Numbered from the stretch's first letter, positions 24,339 to 30,456 are shown. The stretch is DNA of 30,810 bases from Candidatus Thorarchaeota archaeon (GCA_046758445.1 JBHIAE010000033.1:1-30810); one strand, 5' to 3'. The notes: generated by a model not told the origin, from the letters alone. Numbers and translations are program-made.

Positions 24339-25475
24339 GTGACCTTCGAAGACATAATATGTACAAATGATTTGGACGGAGTGGCCAAGACGGTGGGTAA
24401 CACTGTGGGTGAAGAAGAGACCTACACGGATACTGTGCTTCTTGTCACTCCTGAGGAGATGCCAAGAGAACGAATCAGTCAATACTCCGTAGAGGAACAT
24501 GCCAAAGAGTTCTACAGAAGTCTACTCCGATTCAAAGAGGTGAAGGACCAACTGGCCGACACGGGCATAGAGTTCGGCGGCCGTGTCTTACTGATCGGCT
24601 GCGTTGGAAGTGACTTTGAGGCCTTCGTACATCTTTTGGCTCGCGAAACGCCCCTAAACGTAGTTCGCATTCGATTGGAGCGTTTGCTGAGCATATCACG
24701 AACGGCTGCCGATTCCATGGGCATGCTATTTGAGTTCGCGAGAAGAAATGCACCCAGCATTCTATACTTGGAAAGGCTTGAGAGTCTGGCAGAACCGAAT
24801 TCACAAGAGTCTGTCATACTCTCTTTGGAGCTGCAGAAGACCACCTGGGATGAAGATGAGGTGATTGTGATTGCCTCGACATCGAAACCCGACCAAGTAG
24901 ACGTAGAAACACTTTCGGCTTTTGATAGAACATACGTTTCCGAGTCCACAACAATCGAAGACAGAATCCGCATGCTGGAATCCGTGTTGGGGGGACGAAA
25001 GGACCTGGATCCTACAACTATTGCAGAACTAACAGAAGGCTGGAGCTTCCAAGAGATGAAGCATCTTGCAGTCATTCTAGTCATGACAGAGGCCAGCAAG
25101 GAGGAGCAAGTATCCCGAGAGAAAATGGAGGAGACTATCGAGAACAGCATGGTAGTCCCAGCGTCAAGGAAACGGGCCTTGGGCCACCTCATTTCCCGGG
25201 TCGAAGGGCGGCAGCCGCCCGGATTGGATGCCACAGAACGAGTCTATCCGGATGACTTCTTGGACCAACTCTACCTCATGGCAGTCGGGGACGACTATCA
25301 ACAGACTCAGAGAGTGATTGAAACGCTGAACTCTGGTCTCCCTCTCTCTGTCCAGGATTACGAATTCCTAGGCAATTACCCCTTCCTGCTGAAGGGTTCT
25401 CCCGAGGATCGACTTACAAGATTGTTGAGGGCGAAGAAGAGCAATGATAGATTGCGTAGAATAATGGGGAGATAG
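24339..25475 (+). CDS. Degenerate (probably inactive) classical AAA+ ATPase-like protein
   Basis: The scaffold VTFEDI, VLLIG, LFEFARRNAPSILYL, VIVIAST.KPD.VD, FDR, R.RML, IAELTEGWS is of CDC48/Vps4/FtsH type, but the Walker motifs are altered. GTG 24339 after GGAGG is preferred over 24264. Confidence 0.8.
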   Translation: MTFEDIICTNDLDGVAKTVGNTVGEEETYTDTVLLVTPEEMPRERISQYSVEEHAKEFYRSLLRFKEVKDQLADTGIEFGGRVLLIGCVGSDFEAFVHLLARETPLNVVRIRLERLLSISRTAADSMGMLFEFARRNAPSILYLERLESLAEPNSQESVILSLELQKTTWDEDEVIVIASTSKPDQVDVETLSAFDRTYVSESTTIEDRIRMLESVLGGRKDLDPTTIAELTEGWSFQEMKHLAVILVMTEASKEEQVSREKMEETIENSMVVPASRKRALGHLISRVEGRQPPGLDATERVYPDDFLDQLYLMAVGDDYQQTQRVIETLNSGLPLSVQDYEFLGNYPFLLKGSPEDRLTRLLRAKKSNDRLRRIMGR

Positions 25476-25489
25476 TTGGTGGTGGAAGG

Positions 25490-28400
25490 GTGAGCACGTC
25501 AAGGGCCCATATCGACTCGGTTCGACTGAAGAACTTCCTCTCATTCTATGAAGGAACCGTTCAGTTCGACTCCGGACTCACCGTCATTATTGGACCAAAT
25601 GGTTCCGGGAAGACATCGATCTTCCATGCCATGAAATTCGCCCTTGGCTCAAATCAGAGAGAGGCTCGCTATCCGAAATGGAGTGATTTCATCCGCCACG
25701 GAGCTGCGGGTGCAGAGGTCGAGCTCACTGTTTCAAATGACGGGAGCATACACCGTTTCTTGAGAAGGATAGACAGGGATGGCATTCCTCGAGCTTTTGT
25801 AGATGGAAGGCGAGTAAAGGCTGCAGAACTCAGACGACTTGTGAGCTCCCTTGGATTGGACATTGATAACACCTTGGTCTTCATGCCACAAGAACGAATC
25901 AATGCTCTTCGGGATATGAACCCAGTCGAAGTACGCAGGCTCGTTGAGGAGGGCACGGGCCTGAGTGAGATACGAGACCGCATCTCCATCCAAGAAGCTG
26001 AAGTACTGATTAGTCAACAGAAGCTAAGAGAGGCACTTGATGAATCGAGAGTAGTCGAAAGGGAGATTGATCTGCTCAGACACGATCTTGACCGCCTCAA
26101 GAAGAAGAGAGAGCTCCAGAAACAGGAGAGTCGCCTGGCCATTGAAGTCAAGTGGGCCACTCTCGATGAAGTTCACAGGCGCATCAAGGAAGTCAGGAAG
26201 ACCATTGAAGAGAAGGAATCAGGTCTGGTAAGCATTCTCGATGAGCAGAAGTCGTTAGAGGACCAAAGAAAGGAACATGTGCAAAAAACCTCGACTCTTG
26301 AATCTAGATTGGGCCAAGTCCAAAGAGAAATCGGATCAATAGAAGAAAGGATTGAACAAGAGAAACGGCGAGCTCAGAAGTTGCAGGATGAGAGCAGTAG
26401 TACTCTACAAGAGATTGACCAGCTTAGCCTGGAATTGAAGAAAGAAAAGCAGCTGAAGGTGAAAGCCAAAGAAGACCTTGAGAACGCGATAGCAGCTAAA
26501 GAGGACTTACTTCAGAAGCAGAAGGAGATTCAGGCTGATATCGTGAACAATGAGTCAGAAAGAGATGAGGTTGAGGACGTACTTACTGCTTTTGCCGACT
26601 GGAATGTCAAACGAACAGATGCCTACGTTTCATACAAGTCGCTTCAAAATGAGGTTGAGAAGAAAGACGTCCTGTTAAGAAGTCTGAAGGAGCGACTCTC
26701 AACCGAGGAGGCAGAACTGCAAAGCATTGACAGTAAGTGGTCCCACGTCTGGGAGGCAATGGAGAAGACGAATGAGAAGGAGTTGGCTTTAAGAAAAGGA
26801 CAGCTTGAGAGAGAGATTTCTTCCCTGAATGAGATAAGGTTTAGAGAAACCAGTCTAGTGTCCCGACTTGAAAAGGAAATAGACGACATCAAAGCAAGAC
26901 TCTCAGAAACTTCTGAGAGGATTCCCGCTTCAGTGAGAGAACTGAAGACCTCCATCGATGAACATGAGATGAAGTCCGTATTCGGGCCTGTCTTGGAACT
27001 ATTGACAGTTTCCGAAGAATTGTCTCATGCTGTTGAAGCAGTGTTGCCTCATGGCATGGCCTTTGCTTTCATCGTTCGTGATGAGAACGACCTTGTTTTG
27101 ACGCAGAAGCTGAGGGATAAAGTGGATGCTCCATCTCCCATAATCATGCTTCGCGAGATTGAAGAAAGGATTCCCCGAAAGGAACTGCCCAGTGGACGAG
27201 GTGTAGAGGGCTGGTTGTGGGACACGCTCTCCTTGGACGCCGAAACGAGATCTCTCCTTTCTATGGCCTTCGGAGATTTGGTTCTGACAAGGACAAGCAG
27301 AACAGCTAGTCGTGTAGCGACACGTTATGGTCTTGGAGCAGTATCACTCGATGGTTCATTTGTAGTCCCTGAAACAAACAGGATAGTAAGCTTCCCAAAA
27401 CACGAATCTACAGGCCTCGTGTCCACTGCTCCGCTTCAGACAAGGCTTGCCGAGCTCGAGAGGGATATGGTTCTGGCCCGTAAGAGAACCACCGAAGTGA
27501 TGGCGAAGCTGGACAAGACAACTGGTGAACGAGAAGGAATCATAGAGCTTCTTGCTCAGGCAACGAGATGGAGTAGCACCTGGGAACGCAGAAAGAAACT
27601 CCTTGAAAGCATCCCTGAAATCGAGGAGAGAATTCTTGGCCTCGATGATGAACTAAGGGGCCTGCAAGCGAACTTGGGAAATGCCCAAAGACAGCTTAGG
27701 AAGCTGGATAGCACGCAGCCCCCAGAGAGAAGCAGGCTAGTTGGTCAACGCTCCGCAATACGACTCAAGATTCGAAGACTCCAGGGAGACCTAGGGAAAG
27801 TACAGAGCAGTCTCCGGGATACTGAACAGGCCGAGGAAAAAGGGAGAGGTGAACTCAGGCAGCACGTTGATCATATTGGAATGCTCTCTAACCGGACAAA
27901 AGAACTGAGAGAGGAATTGAAGACATCAAAAAGCGAATCTGCGTCCATAGCAGAATCCATTGGGATATTGAACGACGGCATTGTTGAAACGCAGGCAATT
28001 CAGTCGAAGATACGGGAGGAACTTGCCAGCATCAACGAAGTCGTCCGCTCCATCGGTGAGCGCCTAGTTGAGCTCAGTCTTGTGATCAAGGATAGCAAGC
28101 TCCAAGTCCTTCAGGCGAGAAAACGCTTACGCAACTTAGAGGAAGAGCAGGAACAATTGACGAAGGACCTAGAGGCTGAAGAGAGGCCCCAAATCGTACG
28201 ACCCCTCGAAACTGGCATGGCGGATTTGATACGCGTTCGACATCTACTCGACGACTATCAGGATGTTTCTGAAAGCGTTGCCCACACCGAGTCGCAGCTG
28301 AAGAGCCGTCTGGGTGAGCTGACTGCGCGTGTAGGAGATCTGGAAAAGGAGCTCCAAGAAGCAGAGGCAACCGTGAAGCATATTCGGGAACAGTACCATA

Positions 28401-30096: not shown

Positions 30097-30456
30097 ATGT
30101 CACATCGACGTTCCTTGAGATTCTCAAATGCAACCTGTCCAATCTGCGGAAGCAAAGAAGTGGCTAGGGACGATATCAAGGGCGACCTGCTGTGCACCAA
30201 CTGTGGTAACGTCGTGGAGCGTAGAGAAACAAGAGCCGTTGGGAAGTTCGATGTTGCTCAGCACCTGAAGAGAGAAGGCAACATGGACTTTGAGAAGCTC
30301 AAGAAAGCTACCGGAGCATCTGACGACAAACTCTTTGGAGTGATTCAGAGCATGGTCAGCATGAGTCTATTACAAGAGCTGAGAGGGATCTATTCCCTCA
30401 CCAAACGTGGCCAGCGTTGGTATAGGCAGAGACTCGGACAGGAATGGGGATATTAG
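30097..30456 (+). CDS. TFIIB-type zinc ribbon plus winged helix-turn-helix protein
   Basis: CPICGS.....D...GDLLCTNCG.V followed by a wHTH pattern ending YSLTKRG. Confidence 0.8.
   Translation: MSHRRSLRFSNATCPICGSKEVARDDIKGDLLCTNCGNVVERRETRAVGKFDVAQHLKREGNMDFEKLKKATGASDDKLFGVIQSMVSMSLLQELRGIYSLTKRGQRWYRQRLGQEWGY

Follow-up and report, generated by a model that had tools for sequence, protein, structure and literature searches.

SMC complexes are universal chromosome-folding motors, and the loading and release of their rings is a central open question. In TACK and Asgard archaea, operons related to SMC5/6 have been described in which a second SMC gene is accompanied by its own kleisin and KITE genes, in genomes that also carry the canonical Smc-ScpAB (Yoshinaga and Inagaki 2021, PMC8665677; van Hooff et al. 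2025, bioRxiv 10.1101/2024.01.07.573240). Both papers describe three-gene operons, and it is as a three-gene unit that the literature searched presents this archaeal complex, the presumed forerunner of eukaryotic Smc5/6. A stretch of 30,810 nucleotides from a Candidatus Thorarchaeota archaeon (GCA_046758445.1 JBHIAE010000033.1:1-30810), referred to here as the window, carries such an SMC-kleisin-KITE unit in a genome that also has a canonical Smc-ScpA-ScpB operon, but differs from the published operons in having a conserved fourth gene in first position and a recurrent neighbouring pair of genes for a MoxR ATPase and a von Willebrand factor A (VWA) protein. The fourth gene, here called pseudo-AAA, encodes an AAA+ protein that has lost its catalytic motifs. 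That it is co-inherited with the operon in lineages of Thor, Loki, Baldr and Freya/Jord type implies that a component has gone unrecognised, probably a subunit of the Asgard second SMC complex not described before.

Full-text literature searches turned up no paper in which an archaeal SMC complex has an AAA or MoxR protein as its partner, and the term 'AAA' never occurs in the text of van Hooff et al. 2025 (10.1101/2024.01.07.573240). Reported here are phylum-wide co-occurrence counts, family members with intact or partly intact motifs, the loss of the pore loop, an estimate of selection, and a complementary distribution of MoxR and functional Walker A motifs. Taken as a whole, these data favour pseudo-AAA as a dedicated fourth component of the Asgard second SMC-kleisin-KITE complex, serving as a structural subunit, regulator or adaptor, a reading to which we assign a probability of roughly 0.6.

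A fourth gene inherited with the second SMC operon

The genome that contains the window also has a canonical Smc-ScpA-ScpB operon on contig C3 (C3:15830-20715; ScpA PF02616, ScpB PF04079). Against TIGR02169 (cutoff 729 bits) the SMC of that operon scores 854 bits and the window SMC 262.6 bits, and no ScpA or ScpB match to the window kleisin and KITE was obtained even at E<=1. The window operon is thus the second, divergent SMC-kleisin-KITE complex of this genome. PDB matches of the window SMC mix prokaryotic Smc, SMC2, SMC3 and SMC5 and do not settle SMC5/6 versus canonical Smc, and the label 'SMC5/6-like' is best taken as denoting a second operon beside Smc-ScpAB, which fits the published descriptions, and not as a phylogeny. 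Directly upstream of the canonical operon on C3 lies an open reading frame (ORF) of only 143 aa, and no AAA-sized ORF occupies this position.

The survey of gene order took in 20 regions that represent ten families (the window's own and nine others), together with 20 complete Thor operons and several contigs from metagenomes. Where enough flanking sequence was present, the order was always pseudo-AAA, SMC (~1120-1190 aa), kleisin (~175-270 aa) and KITE (~145-190 aa), all four co-directional and joined by junctions ranging from small overlaps to ~90 nt. Of 30 Thor loci, 29 have the SMC N-terminus just after pseudo-AAA and 29 have MoxR divergently upstream of it, the two exceptions being contig ends. 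In the Thor genus g9 (L098, L099, L101, L103, L104) some 2 kb separate kleisin from KITE, with pseudo-AAA, SMC and kleisin contiguous; in one of these loci the gap holds a gene on the opposite strand for a 446-aa transporter of the major facilitator superfamily (L098:5894-7234, minus strand).

Distribution was surveyed in 400 Asgard genomes with two profiles, one built from the C-terminal domain of pseudo-AAA alone (A3) and the other from the KITE of the operon (A5), families being designated by GTDB-level labels (f). The C-terminal domain occurs in single copy in 219 of the 400 genomes and in ten GTDB-level families, including Baldrarchaeum, Freyarchaeota/Jordarchaeum and, as the largest, Promethearchaeota/Promethearchaeia (Loki-type). 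The pseudo-AAA gene and the operon's KITE gene are inherited and lost together: counts for C-terminal domain and KITE are 65 and 67 of 85 genomes in f1 and 122 and 121 of 135 in f9, are equal in f24 (14/14 each), f19 (6/6), f33 (4/4) and f7 (3/5), and are both zero in f5 (31 genomes), f22 (22), f12 (19), f14 (12) and f27 (12). The same holds at a finer scale, since in the Thor genus g5 each of the two is found in 1/7 genomes. Cultured Asgard strains appear to carry the operon as well, the 14 genomes of the Loki-type family f24 including closed ones. Close homologues of the window protein (48-67% identity) come, as judged by their source names, exclusively from Asgard metagenome-assembled genomes, and they share the dead motifs described below.

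An AAA+ scaffold with every catalytic element altered

An earlier note on this DNA, made from the sequence alone, had proposed that the operon is headed by a pseudo-ATPase of the CDC48/Vps4-type clade with an intact scaffold. The motifs that it quoted are all present in the translation of the ORF, at residues 87-94 (GCVGSDFE), 141-148 (ILYLERLE), 179-184 (ASTSKP), 192-197 (LSAFDR) and 303-317 (YPDDFLDQLYLMAVG), as is the open frame of 378 codons, whose stop (25473-25475) precedes the SMC start at 25490 by 14 nt. The description of an intact AAA scaffold with all catalytic elements altered is likewise confirmed by Pfam, by alignment to PDB sequences and by an AlphaFold2 model. The Pfam family AAA (PF00004) matches pseudo-AAA with 33.6 bits (cutoff 21.2), but the match begins only at profile position 14, so that the P-loop is left unmatched. 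The best PDB match, found by phmmer, is the D2 domain of p97/Cdc48 (E about 5e-10), and the alignment to this domain locates each of the lost elements. In the former Walker A motif Phe93 takes the position of the lysine, with Asp92 before it and Glu94 after it, and the pattern GxxGxGK[ST] is gone. The Walker B acidic pair aligns with Glu145-Arg146, placing an arginine at the position of the catalytic glutamate and abolishing the hhhhDE pattern, while the sensor-1 asparagine has become Ser182. The arginine-finger segment, LS--AFDR in the alignment, is two residues shorter and both arginines are gone. Pore loop 1, which reads S-Y-L-G in the intact relative P0154 (described below), is S-I-S-R in the window protein, which thus lacks the aromatic-hydrophobic-glycine signature.

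The loss of all catalytic residues is what would be expected if pseudo-AAA were merely what is left of an ATPase gene, decaying and without any function today, but selection data contradict this idea and render it scarcely credible. The frame of the AAA gene is open in every examined locus, and its C-terminal domain is kept in single copy in the 219 genomes listed above. At a synonymous divergence (dS) of 0.22, the ratio of nonsynonymous to synonymous substitution rates (dN/dS) is 0.134 for pseudo-AAA, similar to the 0.105 for kleisin, and 0.071 for SMC, values taken from one genome pair because dS was saturated in the other pairs. Among 22 Thor sequences 54 alignment columns are invariant, Asp92 and Phe93 of the former P-loop among them, and the position of the Walker B glutamate is always occupied by Arg or Lys. 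Pseudo-AAA is therefore under purifying selection and not decaying. The neighbourhood survey that the earlier note had called for, here in Asgard genomes, and the dN/dS estimate answer the two doubts that it raised about its own proposal: homologues, far from being usually unlinked to the SMC genes, are linked to them in every locus examined and across Asgard lineages, and close orthologues share the dead motifs, with a dN/dS of 0.13 in place of neutral evolution.

A further possibility is that the protein still takes up a nucleotide, or some other ligand, by a non-canonical mode and acts as a hexameric, non-hydrolysing switch. It retains the AAA fold with its lid, there are known cases of degenerate AAA sites that bind ATP without hydrolysing it (e.g., NSF D2), and the Freya/Jord-type relatives, in which Walker A is intact and Walker B carries D-N, look like such a state. 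For the window protein, however, this appears very improbable, as the P-loop Gly-Lys-Thr has been replaced by Asp-Phe-Glu and the arginine fingers are gone, so that phosphate-binding groups are lost and negative charge is added, and as Baldr-type members have dispensed with much of the α/β core altogether.

An AlphaFold2 model computed with 38 family members as input (mean predicted local distance difference test score, pLDDT, of 85.8) retrieved FtsH, p97 D2, PAN/Rpt and Vps4 in Foldseek, with E about 1e-11. According to this model pseudo-AAA is a classic-clade AAA+ module with its lid, followed by a helical C-terminal domain. A single AAA module is contained within the 356-378 aa of the protein, preceded by ~57 residues, with no N domain and no tandem D1-D2 arrangement, and the CDC48 model TIGR01243 scores only 24.3 bits against a cutoff of 802. 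Pfam searches for MIT and Vps4_C gave no match in pseudo-AAA at E<=0.01, and a match in the Atlas feature search to a Vps4_C cluster scored 0.77, under the meaningful level. Hence of the label 'CDC48/Vps4-type' the assignment to the classic clade stands, with the D2 domain of Cdc48/p97/VAT nearest by sequence, and the two domains that would mark a Vps4 protein were not detected. To summarise the comparison with Cdc48/p97/VAT D2 (PF00004), its best match in sequence and structure, pseudo-AAA shares the α/β domain and the lid, but differs in lacking the N domain and the D1-D2 tandem, in the loss of motifs and pore loop 1, and in the addition of family-specific C-terminal helices.

Most homologues are 356 aa long, their first residue corresponding to Val23 of the window protein, and the model shows residues 1-27 as disordered (pLDDT <50). 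The GTG codon at 24405 is therefore the likelier start, and probably the real one, giving a protein of 356 aa. Public annotations of the family are misleading, among them 'ATP-dependent zinc metalloprotease FtsH 4', 'SpoVK/Ycf46/Vps4 family AAA+-type ATPase' and 'ATP-binding protein', and are attached to proteins without the P-loop lysine (e.g., P0059). Features of the window are collected in Table 1.

Table 1. Genes, motifs and domains of the pseudo-AAA locus, in window coordinates
Feature	Coordinates	Strand	Remarks
Pseudo-AAA ORF	24339..25475	+	378 codons and stop; probable true start GTG 24405, giving 356 aa
Walker A remnant GCVGSDFE	24597..24620	+	residues 87-94; pairs with GPPGxGKT of p97/Cdc48 D2
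Walker B remnant ILYLERLE	24759..24782	+	residues 141-148
Sensor-1 remnant ASTSKP and shortened Arg-finger region LSAFDR	24873..24929	+	from alignment
AAA lid (small helical) domain	24948..25088	+	residues ~204-250; conserved TEGWSF; AAA_lid_3 matches in relatives
C-terminal helical domain	25239..25472	+	residues ~301-378, ~78 aa; family signature
MoxR-type AAA+, 570 aa	22552..24264	-	AAA_5 and AAA_lid_2; divergent, start 74 nt from 24339
VWA partner of MoxR, 576 aa	20809..22539	-	invariant RHExxHYxxCPYD; DSSGSM metal ion-dependent adhesion site (MIDAS)
SMC, second divergent paralogue, 1123 aa	25490..28861	+	SMC_N and SMC_hinge (Pfam)
Kleisin-position gene, 222 aa	28874..29542	+	ScpA unmatched; position kept in all examined loci
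KITE-position gene, 165 aa	29539..30036	+	ScpB unmatched; profile found in 225/400 Asgard genomes

Intact relatives and the MoxR-VWA pair

Two features escaped the earlier note: distant members of the family with intact ATPase motifs, and the MoxR-VWA pair in the conserved neighbourhood. At the same operon position, protein P0154 (on a contig of GCA_048885365.1) has GPPGTGKT, DEFD, the sensor-1 asparagine, two arginines and a YLG pore loop, and matches Cdc48 D2 with 240 bits (E 2e-70). Partly intact forms also exist. The Freya/Jord-type protein has already been mentioned, and in P0135 (on a contig of GCA_054799095.1) both Walker A and sensor-1 are preserved. Every protein of Thor or Loki type has G-[ST]-D-hydrophobic instead of G-[ST]-G-K, and Baldr-type proteins, at 275-315 aa, have lost much of the α/β core and kept the lid and the C-terminal domain. 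In families f31 and f16 an AAA protein with intact Walker A and an unlike C-terminus is encoded directly upstream of SMC-kleisin-KITE (L093:7034-13446 and L096:4442-10292); the KITE of the former locus matches ScpB with 41.7 bits.

Since rare relatives in the same operon position keep Cdc48-D2-like motifs, the dead form would have an active enzyme as its ancestor. Such a direction of decay fits a quick tree in which the Cdc48 of the same genome serves as root, intact-Walker-A forms stand at an unresolved base and dead forms are nested. The ancestor may accordingly be pictured as an active, single-module Cdc48-D2-like ATPase at this operon position, which presumably remodelled the SMC-kleisin ring in the course of loading, opening or release. 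A few lineages still possess this enzyme; those of Thor, Loki and Baldr type would have lost both nucleotide pocket and pore loop, the lid and a new C-terminal helical domain staying under the strongest constraint. The family has an intact Cdc48-like ATPase at one extreme and a wholly dead scaffold at the other, repeatedly joined by MoxR-VWA, both forms being expressible and open to experiment, and the series from intact to decayed offers a clean natural case of an enzyme turned pseudo-enzyme that keeps its place in a complex.

The linkage of MoxR and VWA genes with the SMC operon takes five forms. In Thor genomes the pair is divergent from pseudo-AAA; in Baldr-type genomes it lies directly upstream and co-directional, forming one overlapping six-gene operon; in L036 the VWA gene is upstream of the AAA gene; in family f20 the pair lies downstream of KITE; and on a metagenomic contig (L118:3657-15590) MoxR-type and VWA genes stand on both sides of pseudo-AAA/SMC/kleisin/KITE. 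On this last contig two genes of no assigned family, for 374 and 170 aa, precede the pseudo-AAA gene. The VWA protein has two motifs, RHExxHYxxCPYD, which looks like a zinc-binding site, and DSSGSM, both of them kept between Thor- and Baldr-type orthologues of 35-37% identity. In known MoxR-VWA pairs the VWA protein docks onto the target complex that MoxR remodels. The window pair has the same architecture as CbbQ-CbbO, RavA-ViaA and NorQ-NorD, an AAA_5 MoxR with a VWA protein carrying a MIDAS, but differs in the extra invariant HExxH motif of its VWA protein, and we know of no MoxR-VWA pair that targets an SMC complex.

The distribution of MoxR is complementary to that of functional Walker A motifs. 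A MoxR orthologue was found in the dead-AAA families f1, f2, f7, f8, f9, f24 and f33, and none in the families with an AAA protein that retains Walker A (f19, 0/6; f16, 0/5), including, at E<=1e-10, the genomes G038 (f19) and G041 (f16), both scored 100% complete. As MoxR was not found where the AAA protein keeps Walker A and is present with the dead form, these data suggest that MoxR took over the motor role from the operon ATPase. MoxR and its zinc-motif/VWA partner, which co-occur with the dead forms and are often adjacent to them, may then supply ATP-driven remodelling in trans. A bolder version of this idea, which we regard as tentative and rather doubtful, casts the dead AAA as a docking piece for a machine of MoxR hexamer and HExxH/VWA protein that would open, unload or process the kleisin-closed ring, the motor having been handed from the Cdc48-like ATPase to MoxR. 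If true, regulated loading and release of SMC rings would have a counterpart among prokaryotes, in those archaea that are most closely related to eukaryotes.

The MoxR-VWA neighbourhood also brings to mind a different function for the whole MoxR/VWA/pseudo-AAA/SMC/kleisin/KITE cluster, namely an SMC-based defence against foreign DNA, similar to Wadjet or Lamassu, with pseudo-AAA as sensor or adaptor. Extrachromosomal DNA is restricted both by Smc5/6 in eukaryotes and by Wadjet in bacteria, and conflict systems can contain MoxR-vWA pairs; in addition, PADLOC returned weak matches of the SMC to the LmuB, mad3 and JetC models and of the AAA protein to IetA (33.6 bits). These matches, however, reflect generic ABC/AAA likeness far below the family level, and PADLOC gave no matches for kleisin, KITE, MoxR or VWA. 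The cluster is present in one copy and is distributed along family lines in several Asgard families, and the rows of the quick AAA tree group largely by family, without the patchiness typical of defence islands. Combined with the lack of a nuclease or other effector in the operon, this makes a defence function improbable.

The C-terminal domain and a proposed place in the complex

Constraint within pseudo-AAA is unevenly distributed, mean pairwise identity in the Thor family being 0.75 for the C-terminal domain, 0.51 for the AAA core and 0.34 for the linker. The C-terminal part is modelled as a bundle of three to four helices; modelled alone, the domain reached a pLDDT of 76, and about 90 across the bundle. 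It ends in an invariant, strongly basic tail, RLLRAKKSxDRLxRIMGR. In an exhaustive protein search the domain was matched only by proteins of the same AAA plus C-terminal-domain (or truncated) architecture, and the gene lay directly upstream of an SMC gene in 6/6 of these for which contigs were examined. No structural relative emerged from a wide VIA-align search (best Z 5.8) or from Atlas structures (template modelling score, TM, <=0.43 by query), Atlas feature scores did not exceed 0.80, and a profile search of the PDB gave nothing below E 0.04, although such negatives do not in themselves make the fold a new one. Comparison of the domain with the operon's kleisin and KITE by hhalign gave probabilities <1%, and fusion proteins >662 aa containing the domain were not found, which is weak evidence.

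Such a basic tail might instead point to a DNA-binding or regulatory protein that is co-expressed with the SMC operon and stands outside the complex, for example an autoregulator of the operon acting through its basic C-terminal helix, and the failure to find a fusion protein with the domain agrees weakly with this. Several observations speak against it: the strict single-copy co-occurrence and co-loss with KITE across families, the tight or overlapping SMC junctions in distant lineages, the descent from an ATPase of the protein-remodelling type, and the failure to detect a helix-turn-helix or other DNA-binding family in pseudo-AAA. An autoregulatory function is therefore considered unlikely.

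Membership in the complex is the better account, and in its fuller form, again with a probability of roughly 0.6, pseudo-AAA would serve the second SMC complex as a subunit or adaptor without catalytic function, the leftover of a Cdc48-like ring remodeller, contacting the complex through its lid and C-terminal domain. These parts are the most likely contact region because they appear to be under the strongest constraint. The data display directly the dead motifs, the fold, selection, synteny, co-occurrence and the intact relatives; from these we infer that pseudo-AAA binds the SMC complex, through which surface it does so, in which direction the motifs decayed and what part MoxR-VWA plays. The retained non-enzymatic role tied to the SMC complex that the earlier note had suggested is strengthened by selection and by the phylum-wide co-occurrence with KITE; in that role pseudo-AAA may be a loader or an adaptor and would be physically associated with SMC, kleisin or KITE.

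Several points weigh against this reading. In family f20, where KITE and MoxR-VWA are both present, nothing matched the C-terminal domain. That domain is without a recognisable fold relative, so that the proposed contact surface is a guess. Loki-type families, including f9, carry the MoxR orthologue on other contigs than the SMC operon, and MoxR coupling is therefore not universal; the correspondence between MoxR and dead AAA also rests on few independent lineages. Finally, the quick tree has unresolved basal forks and long branches, and a slow rate of evolution may by itself be enough to place rows close to the outgroup; rate differences and long branches leave the order of decay events uncertain.

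Dead AAA+ subunits in ring-handling machines are not without precedent. The δ and δ′ subunits of the bacterial clamp loader are AAA+ proteins that have lost ATP binding or hydrolysis and are kept as structural or ring-contacting parts of a machine whose target is a ring-shaped DNA-binding protein. Pseudo-AAA resembles them in retaining a dead AAA+ fold in what may be such a machine, but clamp-loader subunits belong to another AAA+ clade and sit in a pentamer with active paralogues, whereas pseudo-AAA has no adjacent active paralogue of its family, the nearby active ATPase being MoxR. In terms of function a parallel is found in eukaryotic Smc5/6, where Nse5-Nse6 are non-SMC, non-kleisin, non-KITE and non-enzymatic subunits that regulate the SMC ATPase and its loading (PMC8327961), the very role proposed here for pseudo-AAA. 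Nse5 and Nse6 are α-solenoids, however, and pseudo-AAA is modelled as an AAA+ fold with a small helical bundle, so that the likeness is one of analogy and not of homology. At the other end of the window operon, 60 nt past the KITE gene, lies an ORF of 119 aa (30097-30456, plus strand) with a TFIIB-type zinc ribbon (PF08271, 34.8 bits).

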